DNA of 64,000 nucleotides, from the NCBI GenBank assembly GCA_044892525.1, contig CM097886.1, positions 76,570,001 through 76,634,000 of the forward strand, given 5' to 3'. This stretch comes from Schmidtea polychroa (lineage: Eukaryota). Below the pieces are notes generated by a model that was not told where the DNA came from, did no database searches, and was given only the letters and a program-made list of their open reading frames with translations. The position numbers were made by a program, and so were the translations under genes. Positions 32,260 to 63,400 of this stretch are shown here, one piece after another; position 1 is the first letter of the stretch, and the number at the start of each line of letters is the position of its first letter.

Positions 32260-32424
32260 GAAATACAATGAAATGTATTTCTTCAATGTATTCTTCAATA
32301 TTCTTCAAACTCCTTGAAATTGGTGTTCACAATCATACTGTAATTCATGGTCGAGTTACTGTTAAAGCAACACGCTGCAGTATGAAAGGAAGAGCTGAAG
32401 AAACAGAGGAAGCAAACCGGTCGA

Positions 32425-37230: not shown

Positions 37231-38169
37231 TTAGTACTGTATCGACGATTAATTTTGGTTGTTTACTTTTGTCGTCTTTTGTTTTTTGACAATGTAAGTG
37301 TTTTACGATTTTCCAAATAATTTATATTAACGAGTGCTGACTGTAATTATCAAAAAAATTATAATAAATAACTTAGTTGGGGTATAACATAGGTAATGTT
37401 CTAGGCCCCTAAGCGGTAGTTCATCATTCAATTGTAACGTGTCAAGCGTGACGTAGTTTAGGGGTTAGTCTGGTGCGAGTGCGCCAAAATGTATGCTTTG
37501 TCTAGGGCGCCATTTTGGCTAGGGCCGGCCTTGAATAATAATAAACATCAATATCTTTACTGATTCATAGTTAATTTTTTACTAAATTCAATGTCAATTG
37601 AAAAGAAATTAGAGGTGAAAATTGAAAGAAGCTCTTATAAGAAAAATAATAATATTAATATTAAAAAAATGGATTTAACTATAGTAAAAGCTGAAAGTTT
37701 CTCAACTAAAATGTGCAATTACATTGCTCCTAATATTATTTATATTTAGTTAAATTCTCCACATATATTACTGGTGGGTTACTGGTGGTTGAATGATTGA
37801 GTGCTGTTACCAGCGTAACCCAAAATACAACATTGTTTTTCCGCTTGGTACCCGTTGAGTGATCAACGTTGGTACTGTACCAAGGGTTGAGTACTCGCAA
37901 AAAGTGAGCGCATCAAAGCACTATAGTTGTCGAGTACTCCGTGGGTTCACGGACTACCGATAGAAGGTGTGTGTCCGATTTCTCAGGTCCCTTTATCAAA
38001 ATTGTTTTCCCAACCTTATGCACAAACTCTCATTTCCCAGGCAATCATAAACTGTACTAGTCATTATTTTATCACTACGAAACGTGCAGTATTTTAACAA
38101 GGAACATATTATTTGAAGACTACCACAATACATAAAAATACTACAAAACACCTAAAACCGAATATAAGT

Positions 38170-38673
38170 TCAAACAGGCTTATTGGTAGGACTGGCCAAT
38201 TCCGTCGCAGCTGCTAGTGACGAATTTGCTTGTCGCTCGTATTCGGCCAGTCTAGCTTTCTTCAATTTTTCCCGAATATTTCGGCCTAACCGCTTTCTTT
38301 TGGGTTTCTCTTTCGCGGCCGGGGGGTATATTGCTGCTAGTTCCACGGTCAACGGCCGGATTTGGCTTATGGCGGCTCCGTGAACTACTTGTTCATTACG
38401 TTCGGTTTTTAACGCGCGGAGCTGGAGTTTCAGTGCCCGGATCTCCATCTGATCCTGCGCAGCTTGAGTCTGCAGTTGAAGGACCTGCGCCACCTTCTTT
38501 TTCATATCCTCGGGACTAAACCAGGTGCTTTCTAGTTCCCGGCACCGTCCCTTGAGCTTGTCTACTCGTATGCGGAGCTCCTCGGACTGTTTTTGAGCTT
38601 CTGCCCTATCTCTTCGCAGATTTTCCAATAGTTTGAACACTAGATAAATTCAACGATTATATTCTTGCAGCAT
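38170..38673 (-). CDS. Coiled-coil, basic (NLS-like) accessory protein; in-frame TGA at codon 8
   Basis: aatag-t-ATG at 38673; MLQEYNR*IYLV is in frame with the 156-aa ORF; KPKRKRLGRNIREKLKKAR. Confidence 0.55.
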
Positions 38674-38849
38674 ACTATTCATTCAATTATAAAATAAAAT
38701 CAATATTATAAATAAACATAGTTTCGGATGTTAAGCACGCAATACACAAGATGATTTATTAAAAGGACTGAAATAATTATCACTAAAATCAAAGTTTAAT
38801 AAAGTCACAACTGAATGATAATTTGCAAAAACAAAATTTTGACGATGAG

Positions 38850-39215
38850 TCAGTTCAGTCGCTTGCGAGGCCTTCCCCTCTTCCGCGGGGTTGCCTCGGC
38901 CTCTTCTAGGTCCTCCACGGTTTTTCCCTCTTTTTCTGCTTGGATTTGTAGCTCGATCTTCTTGAGTCGCATCTGAGCTGCTTCTACCTCGATGGCCGCT
39001 CGGTCGCGGGCCTCTTGCAAAAAATCGTTTGTGGGCTCTGTTTTTACCCACGCCGGAGCGTCCGGCTCCGGCCCACTCCTGATTACTGGGCCAAAGTTGT
39101 CGAGGTCCAAACCCCGATTCCAATCATGGATACGGTGCCATATGTACCGTGTACGGAGTCTGGTAAGCATCTGTCGGTCGGCTTCTTCGTGGCTATCGCT
39201 GTCAGAGTAGGACAT
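38850..39215 (-). CDS. 121-aa AT-hook/coiled-coil protein
   Basis: ATG preceded by attattttgtag-aa; C-terminal RKRGRPRKR AT-hook; VKTE SUMO consensus. Confidence 0.65.
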   Translation of the reverse strand: MSYSDSDSHEEADRQMLTRLRTRYIWHRIHDWNRGLDLDNFGPVIRSGPEPDAPAWVKTEPTNDFLQEARDRAAIEVEAAQMRLKKIELQIQAEKEGKTVEDLEEAEATPRKRGRPRKRLN

Positions 39216-40164
39216 TTCTACAAAATAATAATCAAGCCCCTCTATACTGATTGAGATACGACGTCAACCACAAGAGTTTGTTGACCCTTTTTCCCTAAAA
39301 AAAAAATATTTTATTTTAAGACTAACATCTATAAGCTTAGGAGCAGTGGAATAAGATTTCCTACTTTATCAAAACAAACACAAAAAAAAAAAGGAATTCC
39401 GTCAAAATTCGTTTGTTTAAATTAATCATTTCCATTCAAAATTTTGTTTACCACTGAGTGGTAATTTTAATTACTATTTATAAATTTTAATTTATATGTT
39501 AATAAAATGTGAATTTTTTTTTAGATCGTCATTTTTAGGCCACTAAATTCGGGCACGCTGGGGCGACAGGTACTAGCAACGAACTAAGCTCTTCGTCTGC
39601 TTACCTTTCCTTCGGTTGTGCTCGTTATGAGTGGTTTGCTCTACATGCAAGTAATTTATTTGATTTTTCTACTTCCTTATTTTTTAGGCGATAACATTAG
39701 GAACCTCGATCGAGTAAGGGGAATATATTAGCTTGGAGTAGTCTTCCCATAGTTCTTCCCAGGGAATGACATTTCATGCCCAATATTTGATTTGGACCCG
39801 CAATTTGTCCCTCGCAGAAAATTGGAAATTTTTCGGGAATATTTGTATTCTGTATGTAGGTAAATCTCTGCGAATTATGGCTTATTTATTCAATTGCATG
39901 GTTCGCCGGAGTCATCCTCACCATCTCCTGGAAACTCTTGATTGTCATAGCCCCGTCTTGAATTTTTCCTTAAGGTTTCTCTGGGGGGGGGGGGTGTTGC
40001 TAAATATAGATTTTCAGTTAGGAACGTTTTTATTGGGCAAAAGAATTGACTCCAAATCTAGATATGGGGAAAAATCAATAATTGATTTTTTGCTTTCCTA
40101 GTAAGTAATACTAATTATGATCATAACCGTAAAAATGGAGATAACGAGGATAACAAATGATCGT

Positions 40165-40310
40165 AGTGGTAATAATAATAATAGTAATAGTCATAATAAC
40201 AATAATGATAATAATAATAATGAGAATAATAAGGATAGTAATAAGAACAATAATAGCAATAATAATAGTAATAATGATAATGGCAACAATAATAATAATA
40301 GTGATAATAT
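40165..40310. repeat. (AAT)n-like degenerate microsatellite
   Basis: aataataatagtaat... run. Confidence 0.85.
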
Positions 40311-40559
40311 AACTTTATATTTTACCATTCGTATTTTGGCTTTCACCATTTAGGGATTCATATTTTATGAGTTCGAAGGTTACATTTTGCACTTTACAGG
40401 TTTTCGTCTACGATTTTCAATTTTTTATCTTACAGTTTATAAATTCATACTTTAGAAGTTCTCATCATACACTTTATAATTTATAAATTGTTTATTTAAC
40501 ATTTTACCATTTTATATTTTTTACTTCCTAATTTTCTATTTTCAGATTTATAGTTTCAT

Positions 40560-41000
40560 GGTCTACCATTTAGAAATTTGGATTCTTGATTTATGATTAT
40601 ATGGTTTAAATTTTTTGTTCAATATTTTACGACGTTATGTTTTCGACTTAATGGTTATGATTTATACAATTATAGTCTACTATTTAGAAATTTAGATTTT
40701 TACTTTATGATTATATAGTTTTTGCTGACAATTTATATTCAACATTTTACGATCTTACATTTCAGACTTCATCGTTATGATTTGCCCTTTTATGATCTAC
40801 AGTTTAGATTTTTGATCCATAGTTGTATAGTTTATAACTTATAATACTATATTCGGTATTTTAGACTTTATGATTATACTTTACACTTTTAAAGTCTACA
40901 ATTTAGAAATTTAGGTTTTTAATTTATAGTTGGTAGTTTTATATTCAGTAATTTACGGTTTTAGGTCTATAATTTATCAATATAATTATCTCCAAGCTAT
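40560..41000. repeat. Degenerate ~100-120-bp tandem repeat, ~4 copies
   Basis: gtctac(c/t/a)atttagaaattt(a/g)g anchors at 40561, 40675, ~40795 and 40894. Confidence 0.65.
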
Positions 41001-42908
41001 TATAGTTATTTATAAAAGTTATAATCAATTATTTATACCTTTAGGAATATGTTACAGTGAGAATTTAGATTCGGGATTCTTTTAAATTTATAACTTTTTC
41101 CTTTACGTTGGATTCATTAAGTCGGTGATTTATTCACAGGTCTATCCAAATTTAAGCTCTACTTAGACATAGGCCGAAGAATTTTACCATTTCTATTATT
41201 CCAATTACCATGGGCTCCTATTACCAAACCTAATTCGGCATATGTCCAAGTGTACCAAAATATTATTATTGATCAACCAACTACATTAATGTGCTTGCAG
41301 AATTGTGTAAGTTTAGGTATGAGCTCTACTCAATTTAGGACCTTAGTGTGGAGTCGTTGTTTATGATTTTGAATGTGGATTTTTCATGTGTATTAAACGA
41401 AAGTCGGGAAGAATATTGCTTCCATGGCCCCACTGTGACCACTTCTACAAACCTTAGTGTTGTGTGCTGAGTCAACCATTTACGGTTGACCTTGAATAAA
41501 TACAAAGAGTCAGGCGGAGGGTTTCCTCGACCTAACTCCATGGCAGGACCATGAAGTAGTTCGACCTCCGGCTGACCCGAACAAAAAGAAATCATATAAT
41601 AAATATCACTATAATAATGATAATGCGTGTCTGCATGTCCTGTTAATAACGATTTTAATAACTTGGATGCAGGACTGAACAACGACGCAGGAATACCAGT
41701 ACGCCGTTGATCACTCATACATCGCAAAAAATTTTAAGCAAAAATAGATTTAAAATACCATCTATATAATTAAACAATTAATATACAAATAAAGATCAAT
41801 GCTTACTATCGATTTTGGAAATTTCGTCACAAAAATTTGGCATAAAAAGTGATTGATTGTGACTGAAACGTGTCAGTATATATACCTATTTTGTACACGT
41901 GTATGTATTGATGCATTAAAACAAACTCGAATTCTTTTTATTCCAGAATTTTCTATTTTACGATTTTGCTATTTTTAATGGCAATTTTTGTGCCATAATT
42001 TTTGTTTTTATTTTTATATTTTTATTTTTTAATTATTTTTCATTAATTTTACGTCCATGATGGATTTGGAACGGTTCCAGAACATTCTATTTTACTTTTA
42101 ATTTAATTTTTATTTTAACTGATGTTTTTATGAATTCTTTTTGAGATTTTTTTTTTTTTTTTTTTTTTTTATTTTTAATACTAATTTATTTATTTTCCTT
42201 AACTTTTGTTGTTCTAGATAACTTTTGTGATGGTCATCGCCATTTTTATAGAATGTTCTGGGTTTTTCTGGAATGTTTTACTGTTTTTATCGTCTTTTAA
42301 GTTATTCGAGTCTGTTTTTTGTAACTCTGTGTTTATTTGGTTATTTTTGAGTTAGATTTTTGCATCACTTCTTGCTTTTGTATAATTTTGTTTAATTTCT
42401 TTGTTTATGTTTTTGTTGCTTTCTCCTTTAGTTAATATTGTTTATTTGATGTAATTTTAATATTTAGCTAAACGTCTTGCTTTTGCATGTTGTGTACCTG
42501 CACCTTTCAGTCACAATTCAAGTTTGGGTCTAGAAGTCAGTTCTAGCCCAACATAAAACACTCGGGGGCCCATAAAATTGCGACCCGCAATTTAAATCAC
42601 AAGATGAAGAAAATTATTTTTCAGAATACTTGCACTATATTACAAGTGCCTACATGCAAATTGGGTCTACGAGCTACAGGGTCGTGACCTCAATACCCAC
42701 ATACATAAAAAGGCTACTATTATACTACATTCTACGGATGGGTTGAAAGATGAAGAAAAAGAACGACCGAGGTCGGTCCACACAAAAATAAAATTATCAT
42801 GCTCAAGAATCAATGTTATTAGTCACAATCAGTCTCAGTCTTTGAAATCATGATTGTTTGATAATGTTTTATAATGTCATGAAATGTTTATACTGTCGTG
42901 ATGTCACA

Positions 42909-43883: not shown

Positions 43884-43959
43884 CTTTACATATACATATA
43901 TGTTAATAATAATTACTTGGCTTTATTTACAATTTATTTACACGGTTATTTTGTCTCAT

Positions 43960-44727: not shown

Positions 44728-44818
44728 ATCTACAAAAATATACATATCATATTTCCTTTTGTCTTCTTTTTATTCTGAATTTTTCGGTTTTGTAATTTTT
44801 ATTTGGTTTTGGTTTTAT

Positions 44819-44819
<1 letters not shown>

Positions 44820-44862
<43 letters not shown>
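44820..44862 (-). repeat. 43-nt poly(A) tract (element sense strand)
   Basis: T43 on the plus strand, ~33 nt past the stop of the 44895 ORF. Confidence 0.9.
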
Positions 44863-44894
44863 CATTCTTATTTACAGGCAACATCTCCCTTCGA

Positions 44895-46493: not shown

Positions 46494-46575
46494 TGTCTAA
46501 ATAATTACACTATTACTACCACTATTATTTCATACATTTATTATCTACACTTTATACACGGAATTTTAATTTTTG

Positions 46576-47754
46576 TTATTGATCGGCGTAGCGGAATCCT
46601 TTGATTCGCTGCGCAATCCTCTGTCTGCACATCGGACATTCCTTTACTTTTCTACTACATGTGGCACATGCGATCAAATGTCCGCATGGCATATGAATAA
46701 CTTCTACACTCCTCTCCCAACACATAGTACATTTGATATCTCGTAAGATAGCTGTTTTGACCATTGATTCTTCTTTTATTTTTGTTTCAGGTTTTTCTCT
46801 ATACTGGGTTATCGCTCTGATCATATCGTACGTTGTTGTTGGTATATGTACATTTTTCTGTAGTTTCTCTCTAATCATGTTCTTTGCCCTTGTCGTGCCT
46901 ATTCCGGCTGCTTTCAACGCTCTGCACATGTTGGGTTTGTCTACCACTTCGTCAACCTCTTCCTCTGTTACTAGTACTTCCGGATATTCGGTTTCTTGTT
47001 CGTTGTGATATAGGCACCATGCTTGATGTCTAATTTCTGGTATGCCTTCTTCCGGTAATCTCTGTTGGCTTTCGCATCTTTCACACTTTAGTATTTGATT
47101 TTCTGTTAGGTAGAACCCTCTTATTGCTAATTCAGGTCCTCTCGTATCATCTCCGAACGTTTTCATTCTATTATCTGCTATTTGCGTGAGGAATTCCCCT
47201 TCACAAGTTGGAACATACTCATCAACGATTCTGGTTATCGCGATGCTCATTTTCCCTCCTTTTTCGTCTTCAGTTTTCAATTTCTCCAAGGCTTCGTATT
47301 TGATTTCCGGTTTGTTGTGTACATCAAATCCCAGTACGAATAGACAAGTTGGGAATCGTCTACGATGTTCCTCCTTTGGGTGTTCTCCTTTTTTCCATTC
47401 TGCTAATTTCCCTTTACAGAAACGACATGTTACTTGATCGGGTATCTCTGGTTTTCCGGAGAAGAAAAATCCGTCGCGTGCTAGCGCTCGGCTCTGTTCC
47501 TTGGTGAAAATGGTCTGATGTTCAAATGACAGATATCTCTGGTTCTCACATCTGAATTGTTCATTATCTCCCAGTTTCAAATTTTCGTGTACCCAATTAT
47601 AATCGTTTCCCATTCTCCGATAATATGCGTAACTACTTGGTTTTGTTTTGCTGACTTCCGCATCCTTCACTCTTTCTCTAGGTGACATATTGTCCTCTTC
47701 CTCTCTCATTGTGATCGTTTTCTTTCGGATATTCGGTCTCTCTTGATTAATCAT
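46576..47754 (-). CDS. Inhibitor of apoptosis protein (BIR + degenerate BIR + UBA-like + RING), intronless
   Basis: LARDGFFF...VTCRFC...W..GEHP.EEHRRRFPTCLFV; C-terminal RING CTMC...PCGHLIACATC....CPMCR. Confidence 0.92.
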   Translation of the reverse strand: MINQERPNIRKKTITMREEEDNMSPRERVKDAEVSKTKPSSYAYYRRMGNDYNWVHENLKLGDNEQFRCENQRYLSFEHQTIFTKEQSRALARDGFFFSGKPEIPDQVTCRFCKGKLAEWKKGEHPKEEHRRRFPTCLFVLGFDVHNKPEIKYEALEKLKTEDEKGGKMSIAITRIVDEYVPTCEGEFLTQIADNRMKTFGDDTRGPELAIRGFYLTENQILKCERCESQQRLPEEGIPEIRHQAWCLYHNEQETEYPEVLVTEEEVDEVVDKPNMCRALKAAGIGTTRAKNMIREKLQKNVHIPTTTYDMIRAITQYREKPETKIKEESMVKTAILRDIKCTMCWERSVEVIHMPCGHLIACATCSRKVKECPMCRQRIAQRIKGFRYADQ

Positions 47755-47894: not shown

Positions 47895-49319
47895 CTATCG
47901 TATTTCTATTGTTGGTCCTTCCTCATCTAGTTCGATTAGGAAGAATATAGTGTCCTTTTCTATGTAGGACCCTTCATTAAATTGGTATAGCTGCATAAAC
48001 TCTGCTACTCCTACCGCAGGATTAACCTCTGTAATCGGTTTATTCCCTGCTGGACTGGATGCTCGAAAACACATTATATGTGTCTTTTTTGCTCCTAAGA
48101 GAGATATTTTTAATCTATGTCGGAATGGCCATGCTATTAGGTCGTCAAAATCTCCTTTACAAATTTGCATATATATGGACATGCACCGATCTTTAAACTT
48201 TCCTTCACCATTTGGAAACCATCTCAATTTCATCTTGTATCCATGTTTCTTGGCGTAGAATGGTTTGCTCACTATCGTTGTCTGGATTCCTTGCTTTGCT
48301 TGCTCCATTATTTCCGTTATTCCTTGGATTTTCCACATGTATGGTAGTATTGGTAGTTCCTCTGTTGTCAGTTCCTTTGTAGTCCATTTGGTTTGTAATT
48401 TAGTTACTTCGACTAATTTGTCGTCTAATTTCAACATCCTTTGTGTTACGGCTTCTCTCGTATTTTCGAAGCTTTCCTGTGAGCTCAGCATTTCTTTTAT
48501 CATGATTTTATGTGATTTGAGTTCGTCTTTGACGTCTTCAATTGCTCTTGCTGTTAACTCTATTGCTCTCATCATCTTTTGCATGTGCTCGAATGTATTC
48601 TCCTCCACATGCTTCTTCATTTCTTCTGCTGGTAATTGTGCTCTACAGTCGAATGTCACCATTGGGCATTTTATTGCTTTTCTCGTGCATATCTCCCAAT
48701 GTTCATTTAATCTGACGTTGTTAATTTCTCCACACTCGTTTGGGCATTTCCCTGTATATTCGTCGCAAATCCGTCTTTCTACTGCGTTTCGATGTTCCAT
48801 TTCGATTTCTCTCCAATTAGCAGTTTCTCCGCAAAATTCGCATTTTTCCGTTCGCGCTTTGCATTCCCCTTTATGTTTGGTTTTCTCTTTTCGTAAAAAC
48901 TTTACCGTGCATGCTTCGCATTCCGATTCTAGATATTCGCATACGTCTGTATGGGCTCTTAACTCCTTTACTCGGCCTGTCCATTCGCATGACCTTTGGG
49001 TGCATCTTATTTTCACTTCTCTGATTTCTCGGTTCATTGCTCTATCCGGTATCGTACCAGTGGGGACCAACTTAAATGCTTCTCCACATCCTGGACAAGT
49101 TTCTCGTTTTAGTCTGGCTAATCTTATATCACACCCTCGGCACAATCTACACCCGCATCGAGTTTGACTTGCTCCAATTAATAATCTTCTACATGCTGTA
49201 TCGGCACATAATAATCTCTCTTCGAACTCGTCCGGCTCGGCTTGGTATTTTCTCATCAACTCATAGTTAATCTTTTGTTCCTCTGCTTCTCTCCGGTTTT
49301 CCTCTGCTTTGTTTTGCAT
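47895..49319 (-). CDS. TRAF-like protein (RING, TRAF zinc fingers, coiled coil, MATH), intronless
   Basis: CGCRLCRGC..TCPGC, DRAMNREI, CEWTG...H..VC, MATH YMWKI..SKPFY..GYKMKLRWFPNG..SIY..ICKGDFDDLIAWPF. Confidence 0.93.
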   Translation of the reverse strand: MQNKAEENRREAEEQKINYELMRKYQAEPDEFEERLLCADTACRRLLIGASQTRCGCRLCRGCDIRLARLKRETCPGCGEAFKLVPTGTIPDRAMNREIREVKIRCTQRSCEWTGRVKELRAHTDVCEYLESECEACTVKFLRKEKTKHKGECKARTEKCEFCGETANWREIEMEHRNAVERRICDEYTGKCPNECGEINNVRLNEHWEICTRKAIKCPMVTFDCRAQLPAEEMKKHVEENTFEHMQKMMRAIELTARAIEDVKDELKSHKIMIKEMLSSQESFENTREAVTQRMLKLDDKLVEVTKLQTKWTTKELTTEELPILPYMWKIQGITEIMEQAKQGIQTTIVSKPFYAKKHGYKMKLRWFPNGEGKFKDRCMSIYMQICKGDFDDLIAWPFRHRLKISLLGAKKTHIMCFRASSPAGNKPITEVNPAVGVAEFMQLYQFNEGSYIEKDTIFFLIELDEEGPTIEIR

Positions 49320-49408
49320 TCTACAATGATGATTTTTAATCTTGGGATTTCTACTTGATTATAACTCTATTTATTTACAGGATTATTTACATTTCACTCC
49401 TTTTTCTC

Positions 49409-49864
49409 CTACACATCTACCGTCGAGTCCGGTTCCCCTGTTCCTGGTAACCCGGTCATCCACTCGACTAAACTGGTAATATCATCATGTTGTCGATTTT
49501 CATGCAACCTTCTAATTTCTTCCGCTTGCCATCTGATTTGGCTTATTAACTGATTGTTATTATACTCTAGTTGCGCGATTATTTGGTGTTGTTCCTCTAT
49601 TTTTGTAATATATATTGCATTTCTATTAATACTCTCTATCAACGCCGTTTGGTTTCGTACCCAGTGCTCTTGAGTCTGATTTGTCAATTGGGTCATTAAT
49701 TCACACTGTACCCTCCACATGGATCCTGTTGGCTGACTCGGCTGGTTTGGCACGTTCATTTCCATCATGTCTACTGGATGTACATTCATAAGCGGCTGTT
49801 CTCTTACTTCAACAACATGTGGTATCCTATTTGGGTGTTCTTGCTCTTCGTTTCTCTGGTTCAT
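49409..49864 (-). CDS. 151-aa small coiled-coil accessory protein
   Basis: Intact ORF, Q/N/E-rich heptads; tattataaatag-ga-ATG. Confidence 0.6.
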   Translation of the reverse strand: MNQRNEEQEHPNRIPHVVEVREQPLMNVHPVDMMEMNVPNQPSQPTGSMWRVQCELMTQLTNQTQEHWVRNQTALIESINRNAIYITKIEEQHQIIAQLEYNNNQLISQIRWQAEEIRRLHENRQHDDITSLVEWMTGLPGTGEPDSTVDV

Positions 49865-50012
49865 TCCTATTTATAATACATGGTCATCATACTTGTTTTT
49901 GATTTTTCTACATATTGTTTTAATTTACTACTTTTATTTTGTACATACTACTACTATTATCACTACTTTTATTATTTCATTTATACATTATTTACAACAA
50001 CTCCTCCTCTCG

Positions 50013-51407
50013 TTATACCAGTGTCGCCATGGGGCCGGAATGCAGCGTGCGCATTCCCCCATATCTTTCGTCCGTTATTCGGTATATATCGACTTCGTGT
50101 GTCCATTCGTTCGGTGTGGGTATTCTTGGTAGTTCCGACATCCACAATCCGCTGGATCCGGGATCCTCTACCACCTCGTATTCTTCTAGATTCAGATTCT
50201 CTGTTGGAATACCGTATTCAAATTTTTCCACTTTGGGCCATTTTCTTTGGTTTCTCGGTTTTTGTTTACATCTTTTGGTGGTTCTTATCCACTGAATCAT
50301 TGCTAACGCTATTATCGTGCTTACTATCGCGCTAGTTATCCATATCATCTTTGTGATGATCGTTGTTCCATTATTTGTTTTTTCTGTCGTTAATATTGTA
50401 CTACCTGTGGTATTTGTTTCTGGTGCTTTGATTTTCTTGAATGCTTGATGTAATCGTTCCTTCTCTTTTTCTGTTAGGTGACTGTGATTTTCCCGTTTCT
50501 CTCCCCCTTCTTGATCTCGGGGTATCCACGGTATGTTTATTAATTGGGGTTTTTGTCGAGTTATTGGTTGACATACGCTGGTTCCTCTTCCTTTCTTAAG
50601 GATACATACTTGGTATCGTTCTTTCCGTTTCCCTGTCTCCATTTTAACGTCTGTACCTTTGTCTATCGGTGTTGTTGTACAGTCGATTATTCCCGTCTTA
50701 TCCATTACACATATCCTTATGATTGGTTCTCCTTCCTGGTTTTTGACTGTAATTACCTCTTCACCTTTCTTGTTGAGGTTAATAGTTATCTGCACTTCCC
50801 GTCTTTCGTCTTTAATTACTTCGTTAATCCATGTTGTTGTTGTTATTAATTCGGTTTGATTTTGCTCTGTTGTTGTTTTTGTACTAACTGATTTGTTTGG
50901 CTTCTTGGTTGTTATCCCCCTCAATGGATCTTGTTTCATTGCCATACTCTTTGGCTTGTCTTTTCTTGGTGCAGTTCTTGTTCCTTTACATACTACTATC
51001 CCTTGTGTTCCTGCGCATACCACAGTAGGGGTATTTGGTTTGACCTCTCCCCAGAAGAATTTGTGGTCTTGTGTCATATCAGTTATTATGCATATGTCTC
51101 TGTCTTCTCTGATGCATACATGTGTAATTGATCGACTCCCTTTATCTTCTATTTCGATACCTTCTTCCAAAATGTTGAGTTGAAAATGTACTCCGGTTTC
51201 GTTGGCTCTTTCTAGCTCCATTTCCTCTGTTGATATGTCTCTACAGATGTCATAATCTCCACATAGCCTGGGATCTCTTTTTTGGCTGCTAAAAATCTTT
51301 CCTTTTGTTATCGATCTGAAATCACAACTTACTCCTGTTCCTTCCATTAGTTGCACACATATTCCGACGGCATTTCCGTCGTAATCCTGACTTTTATCAT
51401 AAATACT
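50013..51407 (-). CDS. Type I membrane glycoprotein-like ORF overlapping the polyprotein end (-1 frame)
   Basis: Frame open from 51407; Cys-paired ectodomain, Thr-rich stalk, TM MIWITSAIVSTIIALAMIQWI, tail with Tyr motifs; no own signal peptide or upstream ATG. Confidence 0.75.
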   Translation of the reverse strand, partial: SIYDKSQDYDGNAVGICVQLMEGTGVSCDFRSITKGKIFSSQKRDPRLCGDYDICRDISTEEMELERANETGVHFQLNILEEGIEIEDKGSRSITHVCIREDRDICIITDMTQDHKFFWGEVKPNTPTVVCAGTQGIVVCKGTRTAPRKDKPKSMAMKQDPLRGITTKKPNKSVSTKTTTEQNQTELITTTTWINEVIKDERREVQITINLNKKGEEVITVKNQEGEPIIRICVMDKTGIIDCTTTPIDKGTDVKMETGKRKERYQVCILKKGRGTSVCQPITRQKPQLINIPWIPRDQEGGEKRENHSHLTEKEKERLHQAFKKIKAPETNTTGSTILTTEKTNNGTTIITKMIWITSAIVSTIIALAMIQWIRTTKRCKQKPRNQRKWPKVEKFEYGIPTENLNLEEYEVVEDPGSSGLWMSELPRIPTPNEWTHEVDIYRITDERYGGMRTLHSGPMATLV

Positions 51408-54400
51408 TCACCTTCTTGGGAAGCTTCTCTTACGATTCCCATATTTTTTGTTTCTGTTAAACAGATGGATGTTAATATTATAAATATTCTTTGTAGTAGG
51501 ATTGGCTGGATTTGATTTCGACACACTATGCTATGTAGTGGGGACTTTCGTTTTTTGTTCTCCGTTTTGTCGAATCCTTGATCTTCACCTCGACATTGGT
51601 CTTCTTCGTCTTCTTCCAATTCCTCATCATCACTCGTTGTTTCTCCGCCTTCCGGATTCTGTTCTCTGTCGTTTTCCTCTGGGTTGTTATCGTTATCCCC
51701 CATCCTTTCGTCGTCGTCGTCGTCGTCATTCCTCTCACCCGGGGTTTTCCTGAAAATGTCGTCCTCGACATTTGCTGCTTTGATCATCTCCTCGTATTTT
51801 TTAATTATCTCTTTTTTGTCGTTGTGGATACTTTCTCGTTCTTCTTTGGTTCCTTGATATTTCCGTTGTTTCCGGTGCCATTCCCACACTAGTATTTCTA
51901 GTTGCTTTTTCATCGCATGTGTTTTTGTGCATTCCCACCAATTACCTGTCAATTCTGTTCTATTTCTCTGTAATATTGCTTTAATGGTTTTTGGCATTGG
52001 TGGTCTTGAGTATATGGCGCTTCTTAGTACGATATTTTCGTTGTTTTGGAATTGATTTATATCAATTACTTCCGCTCTTAATTCGTTTTGTTTCCATTTG
52101 ATTAATATTGCTGCGGTTCTGTCTAAGTTTCCTCTGATGGCTTCCAGAATTGGTTCAATGCTCTGTCCCAACACCTCGGCTTCTTCGGTTGTTGCATTTC
52201 CTGTGATAAAGTTCACTATACTAGGTCTTTTTGACCTGACGGCATAACGTAATACGGTTCGTTGTTTGTTATCTTTTTCTTTCAGCGTGGATCCCGTTCT
52301 TAATAATTCTCTGAGTACATCTCTTGACGCGCCTATTGCTATGGCTTTCATCAGTGGAGTTTTTCCTTTACTGTTTTTGACGTTTGTTGATTGTTTGCAG
52401 TTTTCCATTATTCGTATAATCTCTAAAGCTCGTTTTTCTTGTCCTGCTTTCACTGCATGATGGATTGGCCAGTTATTACTCAAATCACTTGTTAGGAACA
52501 TGATTGGTAATCTCCGGATTAGTTCATATATTTGAGTCGGTATTTGTAATCCTTCGGCATATCTTCGTCCTTTCGCATATCTTTCTGCTACTAACATTAG
52601 TTTGCCCAATACTTGGTATTTATTGGTTATATCGGCCCATTCTGGTACAATTTCTCGTGCTATTTTTATTGTCATATTCCATGTTGCTTGGCTCCTTGCC
52701 ATTGCGTCAGCTTCGCTTTCTGCTTCAGTTCCTTTATGGGCGCTGCTGCTTGTTTCTCCTCTCAACATGAATATTCGTCTTGTCTGTGATCTAGTTAATC
52801 TACCGCTTACTTCTGGTTCCGTTGTGGCATTTGTTTGTGATCTCGTGATTATCCTTCTTGTTTCTGGGTCTTTAGTGGCAGTTTTCGCTACTGCTTTGCA
52901 TCGACATGTATTCACATAAATGGGTCTAATTAGTGGATTGTTAACCAACTTCACTCTAGCGTTGTTCTCGTTTACATAGATGATTTCATATGGCCCTCTG
53001 CCATTACGTTGTAATTTCTTTGCTGTTCCTGGGATTAATTCGGGTGTTTCTATAATAACCCAATCTCCGATTTTAAATTGATGGTTTTGCACGTTCTTCT
53101 TTTTATCATGTAATTCCTTATAACTCTCTTGGTTGAATCGGATGTTCATCCCTGCGGTTTTCCATATTTCTTGCATTCTCTCCTTGAACTTTGTCACATA
53201 ATCATCTATCTCCATATATTGTGAGATTGGCGGTTGGTATTCGAGATCCATCGGCATGTTGCATTCCCTTCCATACATGAGTTTAAACGGACTCATTTTC
53301 GTTGCTGAGTGTATTGACATTCGATAAGCCATTAGACACAACTTAATATATTCATCCCAGTCCTTTTGATGTTTACTCACGTAATTGGACATCATGTCTA
53401 TTAGTATGCCGTTAAATCTTTCTGTCTGACCATTCGTTTGCGGGTGGTATGGTGAGGTTCTCAATTTGGCAATTCTAAAATAATTTGTCACTTCATTTAT
53501 TATCTCGCTCATGAAATTAGTTCCTTGGTCAGTTAAGATTTGTTTTGGTGTTCCATATCTGCAGCAGATCTCTTCCACTAATATCCTTGCAACCGTTCGT
53601 GCTTTCTGGTCTGGCATCGCAAATGCTTCAGGGAACTTAGTCAGATAATCAGTTATTACCAATATATACACATTTCCACTGTTAGTCTCTGGTAGTGGTC
53701 CAACTACATCCATTGCAATCATTGTCATCGGTTCTGGCGGTATCGGCATTGGTTTCAATGGTGGCTTTAGTTTACTGCCCGTTGTTTTTCTGGTTGCGCA
53801 TATCAGGCAGTTCTTTATCCATTCTTTCACGTCATCGCTCATATTTGGCCAGTAATATTTCTGTTTGAGCCTTGCTTCTGTTTTCTTGGCTGACATATGT
53901 CCGCCCAATTTACCATCGTGGTATTGAATCATAATTTCTTTCCGTCTACTTTCTGGTAGACACATCAATCGTTTGTCGCCATCCATTACCAATAGCCATC
54001 CTTTCTCGATCGTATATCTGTGACGATTTTTCTCCATGTGTTCTTTTAGTCGATCATCGTTGTTGAATATTTTCATATCGTTTTTTTCCAGGAACTCAAT
54101 TATTAGTTTTAATTCATTGTCTTCCTTTTGTTCGTTCTTTAGATTGGTAAAATCGATATCTTCCGCGATTATCAGGCATATTCGTCTGACGTCATGATCC
54201 ATGAGTTCTTCAAATACAAATCTCGACATGCAGTCTGCATTTGCGTTTGCTTTTCCTGACTTGAATTTGATGTATGGGGAATATTCTTGTAACTGCATTG
54301 CCCATCTCATCAATCGACTAGATGCCTCTTTATGTTGGCCCAACCAAACTAGAGGTTGATGGTCCGTAGTAATAATTATCTCGTGTCCCCATAATAAATA

Positions 54401-57400
54401 TTTGAAATGTTTTATCGCCTGAATTATTGCTAAGGCTTCTCTTTCTGTGACCGAGTAATTCTTCTCGTGTTTTTTGAACGTCTTGCTATAATATCCGATG
54501 ACTCTTTCTCTTTTCTCCTCATCCCATTGTCCTAGCACAGCTCCTGATGCGTATCCACTTGCATCAGTTGCTAATAAAAAAGGCTTTTTGAAATCTGGGT
54601 GGATTAAGATAGGCGAGGCTATTAGTTTATCTCTGAGCGATTCGAAAGCTATTTGCTGTTCCCTTTCCCACAGAAATGGAGTATCTTTTTTTGTTAGTTC
54701 TTGAATTGGTTTTGCGATAGTTGCATAATTTTTGATAAACTTGCGGTAGTATCCGCATAATCCCAGAAATTCTTGTACCTGAGTCACGGTTTTTGGTATC
54801 GGACAATTCTTTATTTTCTCAACGTTTCTCGGATCTGGTTCTTTTCCTTTTGCCGACACAATGTGTCCTAAAAATGTGACTCTCTCCTTTGCCCAGTCGC
54901 ATTTTGACGGTTTCAATTTCAGCTTCCATTGTTTCAGTCTTATGAATACGTTTCTGATGTCGATTAAGTGTTGCTCGAAAGTACCTGAATAAATTAACAG
55001 ATCATCGATATACACCATACATTGTTTGATCCCGTGTGTCACAAAGTTCATACATCTCTGAAACGAAGCAGGTGCGTTTGTTAATCCAAATGGCATCTTT
55101 TTAAACTGATATAAATCTTTTCCGATGGTAAAGGCTGTCTTTTCTCTATCTTCCTCTTTAACTTTAATTTGCCAGTATCCACTCTTTAGATCTAAAGATG
55201 TAAAGTATGCTGCTCCATGTAACATCTGTAACATTTCGTTAATATCTGGCAGTGGGTATGTATCCCTTTTTGTTACTGCATTCAACCTCCGATAATCGAT
55301 ACAAAATCTCTGTGTGCCATCTTTCTTTTTGACCATTACTACTGGAAATTGCCAGGGTGAACAGCTAGGTTCGATCACTCCGGCATCTAACATCTTTTGT
55401 ACCTCCTCCTCTGCTACCGTTTTCTGTGCTTCGGCTAATCGATATGGTCTCAAAGTTATGGGTGTCTCATCCGTTAATGGTATAATGTGTTGCGTTACAT
55501 CGCTGGTACCCAAATCCAAATCTGAAGCCGCAAAAATATCTTTAAACTCAATCAGTAGCTGTCTGAGTTGTTCCTTTTCGTCTTCATTTAGGAGTTCGCT
55601 ATCGATGGTCCATAATTCTTTTTCGTCTGCTCCCTCGCTTTTGATCTCCGGCAGCTCAATGTTCATCATTGGTGTGAGTTTTCCAAGTCTCTCGTTTTCG
55701 TAGATTACTTTATCTTCCTCATCAAAATTGGTGATGTTGATGGGTATCTCGTTATCCTCATTTATACTGACAATTTCTCTTGCCAATGGCAGCTCCCTTC
55801 TCTTCTCGAATTTTTGACTTGGTTCAAATATCATATCTCCTTTGGCTTCGTTATCGACCTTGACATAACATATTGTCTGGGTACGTGCTGGTATTATCAT
55901 TTTTTCGGAGCATCTCACTTCTGTTCTCATTGTGCATATCTGTCCAGTTTTATCTTTTAATTTCATGGAACTTAAATCAATCACAATTTCTTTCAATAAT
56001 TCCGGCATTACATCTGTTCCAATTATACATGATACGCTTAGCTGTCTAATGACTGCGAGGTACGTTGTAACTTTAACCCCTTTGTATTCGATCGTTGACC
56101 ATACTCTTCCTACTACCGCTATGGATTGTTTGCTGCATGTTATTACATCCATGGTTGTCTCCTCAATGCATGGCCATAGTCTTCCTGGTAGCATATTCAT
56201 ATTTATTGCTGAGATATTTGCTCCGGTATCAATCATTGCATCCATCTCTATTCCGTTTACTTCGACCGTGATAGTTAACGATGGTCCTGCTGGTGTCTGC
56301 AATACCGCAATCGTTCGTGTCTCCACCTCTTGCCCCACATTTTTAACTGGCTTGATCATTGTTGGGTCCATTGCTGCCCAATTTGGTTCATACGCCGTTG
56401 GGTAAATATTTGGTACGGGTAATCTCCCGGTTCCCATTCTTATCCGTTCTCTCATTGTCCCTGGTCGTCGCATTGGCCCATTGGTTGGTGCCTGTAAATA
56501 TGGTGATCCCCATGGTTTCCTTTTTTCGTTTTCCCAAGTGTCTGTATTTTTGTTTATCAACATTACTCCTCCTTGATTATTATCGTCATCGTCGAAATCA
56601 TCATTGTCATCACTATCATCGTCTCGTCTGAGATTCATCCACTTTTTCCACTTCCCGGTTCTTTTCGCTTTCTCTTGAGTTCTTTCCGCTTCCAATCTCA
56701 TTATCACTTTGAACTTACGTCCGACTTCTTCATCTGTCCCTTTCATTTGCGTTAATATTTTCAACAATCTTTTTATTCGATGAATATCCTTTGAGTGTCC
56801 ATGCAACACCATTGTTTTCGCTAGGAACGGTAAGAATCCAATTGCAAGTTTCCAATTTACTTTTCTCTCGCGCTTATAGATGTCAAAACATGCTAGCATC
56901 TGAGTTAGTATCACTCTAACTATTTGTATTATCAGAATTATTCCGAGTATCCCTGCCATCATTTGGCCAAATACCAAAAATCTACCCCACATAGCCTTCA
57001 TCATGTTTGCTGTTGCTTGTTGGTAGTGACTTGGTGATAATAATAGCTCGTAGTTCGGGCTCTCCCCATAATTATTTCCTCCAGAAATAGTCACTATATT
57101 TGATAAGATTGCTTGTCTTTGCGCTGGGAATAACAGGTGGGCTCTTGCTGATTCGAGATCTTTTGGTGTATATAATCCACTCTGGGATACGTCTATCGGC
57201 TTGAACTCTAGTTCTGTTGTTAGTTCCGTCAATCCAAATTTCTTGGGCGTTACTACGATTGTTTTACTTGGGAATTGAACCCATTGTCCATCTTCTTTTT
57301 CATACATTGGTCCATATGCATTACTACAATTAAACAGATTTGGTTGAAACCCTACCGGGTTCATTACCCTAGTGACTGCTTGCACAAACCTGGGTTTACC

Positions 57401-60400
57401 TTCGTGGATAATTTCGAGTTCGTTTGCACACTTATCTCTTGGTATTGTAGGGTTTTCTGGCAATCTTGCCATTATCTTTTTGCATTGGTAGGTGTACATC
57501 ACTTCGCCCACGATTCGTCCGAAATATCCTTCCTGTAATGGTAGTAACGGAATTGCGTTATCTGGATTTGTAATCGCCATTGCTAATTTGGTTCTCAGTA
57601 TTTCTTTGTTGAGCAGGCAATCGTTTCTTAACAGATCATGGTAGACTTTTTCCGTGGATGTTAATCCTCTGTGATATAAGAAATCCATCTTATTATTAGC
57701 GTATAAATATAGTTTGACATCCTTTTCGCTTAGTCTTCCGACTGCATTTGCTAGGGTTCTCCGCGACAAGTAGATCCCTTTATAATTGGTGCTGATCACC
57801 ATCTCATCGCATTTACTCACCATTTTGTTCTTTATGAACCTCATTCCTATTCCATCGTCTTTGGAGATTATCGCTGTGGGTGTTACTTCCGATTCCAATT
57901 TCGATGTTATTACGTCTTCTCTGAATCCTTTCCTTGCTCTCAACTCTTCCATCGCTCGTTTTTCTGCTTCTCCTTTTGGTTCACTGTATACTTTCCCTTG
58001 GATTTCTTCGAATATTGCTGTTTTGAGCAACATTAGTCGACATACCTTCTGATCCGCATGGTATACCAGAGTTGACATTCCGGTTGAACATGATCGATCT
58101 GATGCGAGACAACTTGGGTATTTCTTCATTGCTTGCGTGTCAGGGTCGAAATAACCTTGATACCTTTCTAATTTAGCTTCGTAGCTTTCTATCACGACCA
58201 CTCCACTAACCAGTTGTCCGTTCAAGGTGTACGTTCCTGTCTCACATGTTCCGTCTCCTTTAGTGATTCTGCCTGCCGTATACACACGAGTCGTTTTTAT
58301 TTTTCCTGGTTCTGCAGCAATTTCAATCCCTTGCCTTAAGTGGATTCTCCCCGATCGGAATCCTTCCTCGCATTCCTCTCTTGATAGTAATATTACTGTC
58401 GATTCCAATCCCGGTTCTATGATTGTTGAGTGAGAGGATGAACCGCAGTGATGTGCAAATATCTTTCTGGTTACCGTACATTCTTGGACCATAGTTTTGA
58501 TGAAATCTGCTTCTTGATATACGTTGTACGAGACTGATGCCATGACTGTTTGTAATTTTCTTGGGTTTGCCGCTTTACAGTCTTCCGTATCCTTTAATGA
58601 ATATTTCTCATGGATTTTTATGTTGTCGCAGTCGTATACTGCAAATGACTCCGTTCCTTTGATACACATCATCCATATCAATATCGTGGTTATTATGGCA
58701 TTCATTCCCTTTCGACTTGCTCTTGGGTCGTTTATATTGATTGTTCCTTCGAATTCAGTTAGCAAATCGCGTAACTTTGCTTGCATCATTTCCGTTTGAT
58801 CTTTCTTCCCAGTTGATTCGATGAAGCTTCTCCATCCCCCTTGTTCAAGTATATATGGTTCTATTGATCGTTTAATTATTTCTGTTACTGTGAATTCGTA
58901 ACCCGTTGCGTTATATTTTGGCATTCGTTTTTTATATTGGCCGATAACGTTATATACTAAATATGCTAATCCCACTAAAAATCGATTTTGGTCCTCTGAT
59001 CTGCTTAATAGATGTTCCACAATTAATCTGAGTTCCACGGGATCTTTTAACGTTAATCGAATTTTATTATCCATGATTTTCATTATTATCGGTTTCAATA
59101 CTGCCCATAATTGTTTGGCTTCGGTCGGAATATTATCCTTCCTCATGACTCTTTTCACTTCTGGATTTGCTAATGCTAACATGTTGGCTAATAGGTCATT
59201 TATCCATCGTGTCCCTTGTTCTCGGACGCTTGTCTTCACTTTCACTTGTTTTACTAATGCACTTAGTTTATCCATTTTAGTTTTTACCTGCTCCATTTGC
59301 GCCTGAACTTTGGATTTTGGTTCGATCTCTGCTTTATCTGTTTTTGGTCTTCCTCTTGTTCGTCGATCCATAGCTGTTCCGGTTTCTTTCCGTTTTGGCG
59401 GATTGTAAGTTGTATCTTTTGACGTGGTCGCTCCTGGATCTACTCTCCAGTTGCTCCATTCATCGGTTGTGGTTACATCTTTATTGGCATCTCTTTCCAC
59501 GTTATCTAAATCCGTCTCGGCTTCCGTCGTTTCCACTGGTTGTCTCTGCGCGCATACAAATCCATCTAAATCATCAGTTGTCAGTTCACCTTCGTCGATA
59601 AATAGATCTCCTGATTGCGATGCTCTCATAATCTCGCCTGCTTCTACTATCTCTTGTAATTCATCCAGTATTTCGTCTTCTCCCGTTGTTTCGATCGTCA
59701 CTTCACTAACCGCATTTGGAACTTCTGGTGTGTCCAAACTTCCTGGTTGTTGGGTGGATGATTTTTGCTTTATCTCTCTTCTCCTTAGCTCTCTACCTGC
59801 AATTTTACTCACCGTTAATCTGTTCACAATTTCTCCTTGGAGTGGTGTCACACCGATCTCAATATCGTCGTCTAATGATCGTCCCTCGTGTTGTAAGTGG
59901 AATGGGAGTTCATAAGGTATTCTCTTTTTAACTTCTCTGACTTTAGCTGTCGTATAGAATTCCTTTTCCATTGGTTCAAAATCTGGCATGAATATTTTTA
60001 ATTGATATTTCTCAGGTGAGTTTTCGGCCCACTCTTGTTGTTTCCATTTCCGGATGATTTCACCAAATTGTTCAGGGTACCATACGTATACCCGTCGATA
60101 TTCTTCAATCGCTTTAACGATCTTTCGTAGATTTTGAATCCTTTTGCATGATTCGGCTATCCATTTTGCTAGTTCTACCACCGCTCGTCGACGATTTTTC
60201 GCCCCGTTTTGTAATATCTCCATCAACTCCTTACATTTTTGTGCTTCCAACAATGTTGCTGCTTCTTCCTCATCTGCGTCGGCGTCTATTGGTAGATGTC
60301 CTGAATCAGACACTCTTCTCCTCATCATACAGATTCTCGGTTGATTTTCTGGTATGTTCAGTCGTTGGTTCATTTCTTGTTCTGTTTCAACTTCTACTCT

Positions 60401-63400
60401 GATCTGGATAGCATTGTTTTTCACAAATTTTGACTGCTCATTCTCAATGTAACTTAGACGTATTAATTTAGGTGTCCCAGAAGCGATATTTTCTGATGTT
60501 GTTGGTCGTTGATAGCAGGCGCTCCTTGGATCTGGTTTCAATGTTTCTTTATGCATGTTAAGGCTATCTTTCAATGGTTCGATTGCTATCGTCACTTTTC
60601 TGCTAAACGGCCATGGTACCTTGTCGTCATAATTTCCTTTGCAGATGACGAAGAATGCCGACACATAATTTCCTTTACCTATCCCGTCTCCGTTCGGGTA
60701 TATTCGCAATTTCATCTTGTACTCACCTAATCCTGAGTAGAACGGTGGACTTACTAATCGTGTGATTTTCTCTTCCTTTGCTGATTTTATCTTTTCCATC
60801 CAATTCTCAATTTTCCACGTGAATGGTGCTAACCTTACTGGTTCTCGTATCTCCTCATCTTCTCCTGATGGTAATTCATTTTGGAATTCTTGTGGTAATA
60901 TATCCTGGTAAGTATCGATCGGTTTCTCTCTTACCCATACTGCTGCGATCTCTTCGGGTATATTATCTATCCAATTTGGTTCCAACTTTTGCTGCTCCCA
61001 ATCCCATCGAGCTTCACTTTCGATCCACACTTTTTTCCATGGTATCAGTTTGCAATCTTCGTCATTGAAGGCTGCTAGTTTTAGTTTATCATCCTTTAGC
61101 CAATGGTTATAAATATCTATTATTCGATCCATCTTTGCCCTCATTCCCCATTGGAATCTTTTAATTTGTTGCTCGGTTTTCGTGGCGTTTTTGTGCCCAC
61201 CAGATGGTTCATCCATCGCGATTATATTGATGACGGCTCCATCTTCCCAGATTCCTAGTTCGTAAATTACAGTTCGGTCTCCTCTTTCTAGCATGTGCCG
61301 GTTGTACATTATTATCACATCTTCGATCATTCCATCCTCACTATTTTCTCGAGCTTTTTGGATGATCTCTTGATCTATGATTTGCACTAACTCGTCAACT
61401 TGGCAATCGGGATTAACTTCTATTATTTGTTTCTCTTCATTTGGCAACTTCACCTTTATTTTTATCGTTTCATGCTCGCATTTGGTTCTCTCGTATTCTC
61501 CGTATTTAGATATCAATTCTGTCGCTCGTTTGTCTTCGAATCTCATAATTTCCGTGTCTCGTACGTCTTTAACAAATTGTTTCATTAGTTGTGGCCATCT
61601 TTCTCTCAATCTATTAATGTATTTCCTTGTCTGATCGATAGCTTGTTTGACTAAAATTATTTGGTTTTCTTTCATTATTTTTCGTTCGATCTTTTCCAAT
61701 TCTGGTTCTACTTCATTGTTAAACACTTGTTGGATTTTCTTGAACATCTCTGCTACCGAGTCGTCATCCCTGGTTTTCTCTAAGGTTAAGATGTTAGTTT
61801 CGTTTGGCCATATCATCGCATCTACCAAATGTATGCCTATTTTAACTTTGTAACCATCGACATATAATTGTTTATTTTTATGGCTCGTTCCCATTTTTTC
61901 CTGTACCCAGTTGTACAGTTCATCGGTATTTGTTCCTTTTAATTCGATAGTCTGTATCTGAATCTCGGGGTGTTGAATGCTTACTTGATATTGATCTGGG
62001 CCTGCTTCCTTTAGTTTCTCTTTATATTTTGTTGCTAAATCTTTCCATGCTGCCGTTATTATACCTCCTTCACACTGGTATACTTGAGTTATAAATTTTA
62101 AGCATTTTCTGTATGTTAACTCGTTGATGTAGCTCTCATTTCGCTCTATTTCTGTTACTGTGTCGAGAATTTCCTCGAATATCTCTTCTTCATCTTTTTC
62201 TATCATTGATTTCATGTCATCATTTTCACTCTCCTCACTACTTTGAGGTGTTTCACTGTTTGGAGGTGTTTTTGGTTCGTTATTTTCCTCACTTGACTGA
62301 AATAATTCGCCTCCCAGGCTACTCACCTCACTTTTCTCATCTTCCTGATCCGTCTGATCGCTCCGCATTTGTCTCAGCATGTTTATTTTAGCTTTGGTAT
62401 GTGGTTCCTTCTTTTCAAACCACTCATTTTTCCTGAACCAATGCTCTTTCACTTTTTCTTTTATTTGTTCCTCAGTTAATGTAGGATTTTCGTTTTTGAT
62501 TCTGTCCTCGATTTTTTGTAGTAGTACCCTCTGAATTCGATTTTTTGTAACTATCTCATTGCTTTTTGGTTCGTCTTTACTCTCATCTCTCTTTTGTCTC
62601 CTTTCTTTCTCCTCTTTGGTAAATTCTTTAATCAATTGTATTTTCTCTTCACTGCTCAATTCTGTTCGTGGATCGATCTCATTTTCTTTTGTCGTTTTTA
62701 TCTCCTTGTTTATTATCGGTTCACTCCCGTCGTTGTTAACACACTGCTCCGCAGTGTGCGATTCCTCTTTATTTGTTAATCTCATCATATTTATTCTTCC
62801 GGGATTCGCTTCCCGTTGTTTCCATCTTTCTTGAATTTCTCTGGCTTCCTCGTTTTGTAATCTTTGCCATTCGACTCGTTGCTGATCTTGTTGTTGCTTA
62901 CTTGGTTGGTTCCGGATTTCCTCGGTGCTCTGCATCATGTTGATTCGTTGTTGTTGGTTATTAGTCGGTATTCGCAGGATCATATCTTTTAATTGTTCGA
63001 TTTCCTGCATGAGGTTGATTTGTGTGTTCTGAACTGGATTGTTTGATCCTGGTTGATTTGGTTTGGTTCTCATCGTGCATTCTCTTGCCATGTGTCCAGG
63101 CTGATTACAATTGTAGCAGGTTCTGGTTCCTCCTCTGCTCATAGACATCATGGGTCCTCTGCAGACATTTTCCGTGTGGCCTCTTCTCCCACACTTTTGA
63201 CACATCCTTGCTTTATAACATTCATTGCTCCAATGCCCTGGTCGTTGGCATATGTTGCACGTTCGATTGTTGATGTCGTTGTTCCTGAAATTATTAGTAA
63301 AATTTTGAATATTACCTCCATTGTTTTGGTTTCTTGTTTGTGGAGTTTTGAACAACTGTTGCGATCCTGGGATGAATTGATTCATTACTGGATTTGCATT

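Follow-up and report, generated by a model that had tools for sequence, protein, structure and literature searches.

Host element and its coding content

We analyzed a 64,000-nucleotide stretch of the Schmidtea polychroa genome (assembly GCA_044892525.1, contig CM097886.1, positions 76,570,001 to 76,634,000), hereafter the window. It carries a young LTR retroelement of about 35 kb, with 4.78-kb LTRs that are 99.9% identical and a 4-bp target-site duplication, TTAC. The large polyprotein, ORF1, encodes in its Pfam order Gag zinc knuckles, a MATH domain, a Bcl-2-like domain, Env, protease, reverse transcriptase, RNase H, integrase, and ankyrin repeats, the Bcl-2-like part of this order coming from relatives rather than from a Pfam match of the window sequence. 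The coordinates are collected in Table 1. A second genomic copy has an ORF1 that reads through into the C-terminal part, whereas ORF1 of the window copy stops at 51347, the split falling near 51350-51400.

Table 1 Features of the retroelement in the window (positions are those of the window)
Feature	Position	Strand	Basis or remark
3' LTR	37772..42553	minus	about 4.78 kb; 5' LTR 4-8.7 kb past the window end
IAP-like accessory ORF (BIR + RING)	46576..47754	minus	Pfam
TRAF-like accessory ORF (zf-TRAF + MATH)	47895..49358	minus	Pfam
ORF1 C-terminal part, different frame in the window copy	50013..51407	minus	hydrophobic segment near its end
ORF1 polyprotein, at least 4217 aa	51347..64000	minus	ORF list and Pfam; runs past the window end
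Ankyrin repeats	52465-52202	minus	Pfam, in ORF1
Integrase	53737-53441	minus	Pfam, in ORF1
Reverse transcriptase (RT)	55333-54857	minus	Pfam, in ORF1
Protease	56272-55997	minus	Pfam, in ORF1
Env transmembrane segment	56906..56962	minus	hydropathy 2.53 over 19 aa
Env ectodomain (mononegavirus-like fusion glycoprotein), starts FAVYDC	56963..58645	minus	Pfam PF24664 Monjiviricetes_fusion, E 1e-67
Predicted internal Env signal peptide: h-region MNAIITTILIWMMCI, c-region KGTES	58646..58705	minus	-3/-1 rule
Linker of 36 residues with predicted helix, from domain to signal	58706..58813	minus	
Bcl-2-like helical domain (model helices, residues 14-152)	58811..59227	minus	model, Foldseek, profile
BH2-like IEPYILEQGGWRSFIES	58814..58864	minus	in frame in ORF1
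Core helix 5, after the BH1 equivalent	58990-58928	minus	
BH1-equivalent DQNR at the Bcl-xL NWGR position	58982..58993	minus	Arg kept, Gly lost
RGRPK motif, taken to be AT-hook-like, upstream of the domain	59342..59371	minus	
MATH	60823-60389	minus	Pfam, in ORF1

For this region, the genome gave 749 candidate matches; the 150 that were scored were 97-100% identical, many of them in frames of 4,791 aa. The family is young and abundant. The element exceeds 30 kb, has long LTRs, and combines a single ORF1 of the order Gag-MATH-BCL2-Env-PR-RT-RH-IN-ankyrin with a BIR domain. Because this anatomy matches the published description of Burro elements, we infer a Burro-type element.

The C-terminal region of ORF1 has features of its own. 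Another hydrophobic stretch follows the ankyrin repeats (51455-51511, minus strand) and precedes a Cys-containing region, and a further hydrophobic segment lies near the C-terminus (window 50013-51407, minus strand; also L106:474-2999). By these features the region resembles another surface protein, one equipped with an internal signal; if so, the Pol-ankyrin product would be tethered in the manner that we propose below for the Gag side.

Additional frames were observed in and around the element. A small RING-finger ORF (zf-C3HC4_3, E 3.5e-12) lies beyond the window end, between the 5' LTR and ORF1 (L051:3751-4233, minus strand). Four more accessory ORFs of 153-533 aa, rich in Glu, Lys, and Gln (42909-46496 and 49409-49870, minus strand), gave no convincing family match; in one of them a hydrophobic segment lies close to the end. 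Within the LTR, open frames of 130-159 aa (38170-39263 and 41335-41733, minus strand) are repeated in the other LTR, and the two that were scanned had no convincing Pfam match. Fragments of DNA transposons were found at 5091-6517, 22703-23233, and 32386-33495, comprising a hAT dimerisation domain, a piece of a DDE_Tnp_1_7 transposase, and a MULE transposase. The end of the frame at 14072-14650 (minus strand) presumably resembles the splicing factor CWC22; a Pfam scan of this frame gave no CWC22-type match. Contigs of runs X1 and X4 join 60802 to 61665 with 14 other letters between them, a variant in which some 860 bases preceding the MATH domain are missing. Contigs of four presumed RNA runs cover the element in parts; no joint into Env was seen among them, and they are uninformative on splicing or expression.

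A Bcl-2-like domain ahead of Env

An earlier note, made from the sequence alone, had likened a segment of ORF1 to the BH2 region of Bcl-xL, had read QNR in place of the BH1 motif NWGR, and had placed a hydrophobic segment about 35 residues after BH2. All three observations held on re-examination: the BH2-like segment is in frame in ORF1, the BH1 equivalent reads more fully DQNR, and the hydrophobic segment begins 36 residues past BH2, at 58705. The BH2 motif (W..GGW) appears in the window as PYILEQGGW, and its GW is invariant in all 15 rows of our alignment of retroelement sequences (A3). A BH2-like pattern, written after the alignment had been seen, occurred in 2 of 2000 shuffles of ORF1. The canonical pro-survival NWGR is replaced by DQNR in the window; among the 14 rows that cover this column, Gly occurs in none and Arg or Lys in ten, with Val in place of Arg in family C and His in family E. 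The linker between domain and signal measures 25-59 residues in relatives by our script, one mis-measured row having been set aside. The RGRPK motif upstream of the domain, which we take to be AT-hook-like, also occurs in family B, in P0004, and in P0007, P0013, and P0015, which are without the Bcl-2-like domain.

Taken alone, the window sequence has no match to Pfam Bcl-2 (PF00452, curated cut-off 31.4 bits), and its best match to Bcl-xL has an E-value of 0.67 and covers BH2 only. A genome-wide Pfam Bcl-2 search, in which 150 of 909 candidates were scored, yielded a second element family (family B) that aligns with the window over the domain, the signal, and Env (27% identity, E 1e-23). The family B example scored 28.6 bits, below the cut-off, and the sister-element copies L042, L057, and L064 exceeded it (32.2-33.3 bits). 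Two more searches raised to six the count of element families in this genome that have the domain. Among 1.84 billion representatives searched, 34 proteins were recovered, seven of which have a BH2-like motif before the signal; four of these seven match Pfam Bcl-2 (E<=0.012). Of the 15 rows of A3, 13 match Pfam Bcl-2 at E<=0.1; the row of the window is one of the two that do not.

Profiles built from the relatives matched Bcl-xL with E-values of 1.6e-6 and 3.8e-6 (two profiles), and the 60 listed of 113 matches to the PDB were all Bcl-xL or Bcl-2. An hhalign comparison of the profile with seven stand-alone Bcl-2-like frames from this genome had a probability of 96.4. The sequence support from the profile and hhalign comparisons spans helices 4-8 only. 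A word-index protein search found no match for the single query or, at near lengths, for alignment A2; at longer lengths, A2 returned only P0003 and P0004. Transposase-like matches from the ESM Atlas were rejected as noise, their recognition score lying under its threshold. Since it is the relatives, and not the window sequence alone, that match Bcl-2, we accept the homology proposed in the earlier note on their account, and the domain is almost certainly a Bcl-2 homologue.

Stand-alone Bcl-2-like genes are also present in this genome. Seven near-identical Bcl-2 frames with NWGR (L021-L027) lie within 0.9 Mb on contig C4; in the one examined, the frame has no hydrophobic tail. Multicopy genes (L036-L041 and L043-L050, and also L060-L063) have their own hydrophobic tail and stop, and some contain an intron-like stretch. 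Members of this group lie near integrase ORFs (L062, L063) or near a 948-aa ORF with a weak Endonuclease_7 match (L061). These multicopy genes are probably cargo of another mobile element.

Predicted fold of the domain

An AlphaFold2 model computed from A3, which holds retroelement rows only, reached a pLDDT of 69 and a pTM of 0.68; prediction from the single sequence was uninformative (pLDDT 39.5). The model is a helical bundle around the central hydrophobic helix 5. Foldseek comparison of the model with the PDB returned Bcl-2 proteins in all 41 rows listed, with probabilities up to 0.99 and, for Bcl-xL, a TM-score by target of 0.60 and an E-value of 0.12; the superpositions had an RMSD of about 5-6 Å. 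Against the viral set, the first 11 rows were Bcl-2 proteins. Across both sets the probability rose as high as 1.0, yet every E-value was at least 0.018. The best matches by sequence and fold were the pro-survival proteins Bcl-xL and Mcl-1 and herpesviral Bcl-2 proteins. The check by AlphaFold and Foldseek that the earlier note had suggested thus favors a Bcl-2 fold in prediction, at weak E-values.

The hydrophobic segment as a predicted Env signal peptide

The earlier note had also read the hydrophobic segment as the signal peptide of Env. We examined this with a custom script in 38 sequences, comprising the six genome families and 32 library proteins, and dropped nine that had no anchor pattern or no upstream sequence. 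With cleavage placed three residues before the Env "YDC", the -3/-1 rule of signal peptidase was satisfied in 24 of the 29 remaining sequences; in eight other registers, the count was 0-7. In the window, the segment reads KGTES|FAVYDC, with predicted cleavage at TES|FAV, between 58646 and 58645. The fixed register and the small residues at -3 and -1 are those of a cleavable internal signal peptide. These predictions support the earlier reading, and the segment is very probably the internal Env signal.

Nine relatives in which 130 or more residues lie upstream and a BH2 motif is missing carry the same hydrophobic segment. The 12-aa hydropathy averaged 2.62 in the 13 Bcl-2-bearing rows versus 2.92 in these nine (p 0.32), and neither the length nor the hydrophobicity of the segment was greater in elements with the domain than in those without (p ~0.3). 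The window segment is short, with an uncharged run of 16 residues and a 19-aa mean of 1.35, and is typical of signal peptides; its 12-aa mean of 2.5 at least equals the 2.1-2.2 measured for the tails of three stand-alone Bcl-2-like genes of this genome. A captured Bcl-2 tail as the source of the segment is rejected, because Bcl-2-less relatives have the segment at the same register. As judged from these sequences, the segment is an Env signal by origin, since Bcl-2-less relatives keep it and since the Env tree fits losses of the domain through which it stays (see below), and it bears no sign of having been reshaped into an anchor.

Selection and history of the domain

In sister families, dN/dS estimates point to purifying selection on the domain. 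The ratio was 0.02-0.03 in four pairs of family E, similar to the 0.04 of Env in the two pairs whose Env frame was intact; it was 0.09 and 0.15 in family B, 0.33 and 0.37 in family C, and 1.0, on five differences, in family D. The linker of family E is under constraint equal to that of the domain, so the selection signal is not specific to the Bcl-2-like domain. Twenty copies of the window's own family, taken by rank from the top, differ at 0-3 of 621 bases; this family is too young, with too few differences, for selection to be measurable.

In an Env tree of 26 rows, all ten Bcl-2-bearing rows fell in one supported group, with five Bcl-2-less rows inside it. The tree, which was rooted by midpoint only, implies four changes. 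It fits one gain of the domain followed by several losses, the signal always being retained.

Proposed membrane tethering and alternative explanations

The stretch from Gag to the protease has just three hydrophobic peaks, namely core helix 5, the signal, and the Env transmembrane segment; if helix 5 is buried, the membrane is crossed an even number of times. The explanation that we tentatively favor, at slightly less than an even chance, is that this is a Burro-type Gag-Env-Pol whose Bcl-2-fold domain is tethered to the ER through the cleaved Env signal and likely binds BH3 helices, aiding cell survival. It builds on the position and homology of the domain, its presence in six families, and the constraint in sister families, and takes the fold and the cleavage site TES|FAV as predicted. 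The Env signal would open translocation and Env would enter the ER; the Env transmembrane segment would stop transfer, returning Pol to the cytosol. Signal peptidase cleavage would then leave a Gag-side product ending in the Bcl-2-like domain, the linker, and the signal, with the geometry of a tail-anchored protein and the signal as its sole anchor. A membrane-anchored product after cleavage is a reasonable conclusion from the topology, and the tail-anchored state would exist only once TES|FAV had been cut. The element protease may release the Bcl-2 module from Gag. Tethered to the ER, the domain would likely bind BH3 helices of host death proteins, favoring survival of the cell that makes the element.

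We counted the IAP and TRAF-like ORFs within the same element in favor of a survival role, and the BH3-contacting Arg kept in DQNR in favor of BH3 binding. Against these stand the absence of the NWGR Gly from every row covering it and the ER route of insertion, which differs from the usual mitochondrial route. The mutation G145A in Bcl-2 abolishes Bax binding (PMC5841437), and tanapox virus 16L (NDNR) and orf virus ORFV125 (SPGR) bind BH3 peptides via the kept Arg (PMC8310162). We consider that the domain has about an even chance of binding BH3 helices; persistence of the anchor on it is just as evenly poised. The anchor itself is a by-product of the Env signal and not a captured Bcl-2 tail.

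The signal might instead be removed after Env cleavage, by signal peptide peptidase or by the element protease acting in the linker, so that the segment would be only an Env signal and the domain a soluble BH3 binder. Signal-derived anchors are removed in this way from HCV core and flavivirus capsid, and the ordinary character of the segment, its sameness in Bcl-2-less elements, and the variable linker length all suit such an outcome. However, every one of the 13 Bcl-2-bearing rows has the domain immediately ahead of the signal and lacks any other hydrophobic tail, and in three of the four stand-alone Bcl-2-like genes examined a tail of comparable strength follows BH2 by 18-28 residues; we consider removal of the signal unlikely. 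A low probability also attaches to the view that the fold is a signaling scaffold, inhibiting an immune or ubiquitin pathway without BH3 binding, in the manner of vaccinia A52 and B14. These are groove-less Bcl-2-fold proteins that inhibit NF-kB (PMC2494871), and NWGR is kept in none of our 14 rows, its Arg is lost in families C and E, and MATH, TRAF-like, and ankyrin modules share the element. Yet the BH2 GW is invariant and the top matches are pro-survival proteins, whereas A52 and B14 are without significant sequence similarity to Bcl-2 proteins (PMC2494871), and the poxviral BH3 binders tolerate NDNR and SPGR (PMC8310162).

Alternatively, the domain could remain in the Gag precursor, with the signal tethering Gag for assembly and the Bcl-2 fold being structural or membrane-binding. 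The domain is in the frame of Gag with no intervening stop, the AT-hook-like motif lies upstream in elements with and without the domain, and rubella virus capsid associates with membranes via the E2 signal (PMC3040668). This account seems quite improbable to us: five Bcl-2-less Env relatives are nested among the Bcl-2-bearing ones, so the domain looks dispensable for assembly. A separate spliced RNA, with translation from the Met at 58705, might also give rise to Env, whose signal would then be N-terminal and unrelated to the Bcl-2-like domain. A Met does open the h-region in the window copy and lies near it in families B and F, but it is absent there in families C, D, and E, and no CAG/TAG acceptor occurs between 58863 and the Met; on both counts a separate spliced env message is highly improbable. 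Moreover, Pol has to be read through Env in one frame.

The tethered BH3 binder that we favor carries a stronger claim with it, namely a retrotransposon lineage in which a functional BH3-binding Bcl-2 homologue is maintained, with a cleaved Env signal peptide as its sole membrane anchor; this we regard as rather doubtful. Were it true, a death inhibitor would be placed on the ER whenever Env is synthesized, to act upstream of the IAP that the element encodes, and a retroelement would for the first time have a functional vBcl-2, one whose DQNR groove is tanapox-like.

Comparison with known systems

That a Bcl-2-like domain is present in Burro elements is already known, and the statement in the earlier note that none had been described in a retrotransposon was wrong. 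Burro/GYPSM1 of Schmidtea mediterranea are giant gypsy-like LTR elements with an ORF1 of 4,873 aa that contains a BCL2-like motif, with env in frame between BCL2 and the protease, and with MATH, BIR, and ankyrin domains (PMC6431247, citing Jurka 2007 and Grohme et al. 2018). The element studied here resembles them in its length of more than 30 kb, its huge ORF1 (4,791 aa in many copies), its three CCHC knuckles, its MATH domain, its BCL2-like motif, its in-frame env before the protease, and its ankyrin and BIR domains. The Burro section of that paper does not mention a signal peptide, a cleavage site, anchoring, or the state of BH1 (PMC6431247). BURRO1 is transcribed (PMC8532177), and its IAP reportedly keeps planarian stem cells from undergoing apoptosis (Lee et al. 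2026 Dev Cell, cited in PMC13465017). This B-IAP is BIR and RING anti-apoptotic cargo, matched here by the IAP-like ORF (via PMC13465017), and is a different gene of the element from the one encoding the Bcl-2-like domain. Beyond this, our analysis contributes the predicted cleavage site, the origin of the segment, signs of purifying selection on the domain in sister families, and a delimited fragment.

DNA viruses encode their Bcl-2 homologues as separate genes, each with a tail of its own; here, in contrast, the domain is part of a polyprotein and has no tail besides the Env signal. Herpesviral BHRF1 and BALF1, the ASFV protein, tanapox 16L, and ORFV125 share the compact fold predicted for our domain and provide its best viral fold matches. 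Tanapox 16L also has a divergent BH1 with the Arg kept, NDNR compared with DQNR here (PMC8310162). If our favored reading is true, a Bcl-2-type inhibitor, the second beside the IAP, would be coupled one-to-one to Env synthesis, and the element would combine two layers of protection from cell death, as large DNA viruses do.

The placement of Env has its own parallel. GAG-ENV-POL errantiviruses of Platyhelminthes, Nematoda, and Bryozoa have an Env of the HSV/gB type encoded between Gag and Pol, the ectodomain being flanked by a signal peptide and a transmembrane segment or by two transmembrane segments (PMC13524379). Our element resembles them both in the place of Env and in having an ectodomain flanked by a predicted signal and a transmembrane segment. 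The terms "Bcl" and "Burro" have no occurrence in the main text of that paper (PMC13524379). Our literature search found no account of an Env signal serving as anchor; other papers or supplements may discuss the idea.

The rubella virus capsid, which is not known to be a Bcl-2 homologue, is a viral precedent, by analogy, for anchoring by a signal peptide. It retains the E2 signal peptide as its anchor, which is needed for mitochondrial targeting and dispensable for blocking apoptosis (PMC3040668). The likeness is that of an anti-apoptotic polyprotein product anchored by the signal of the next glycoprotein, the anti-apoptotic role of our domain being a proposed one.
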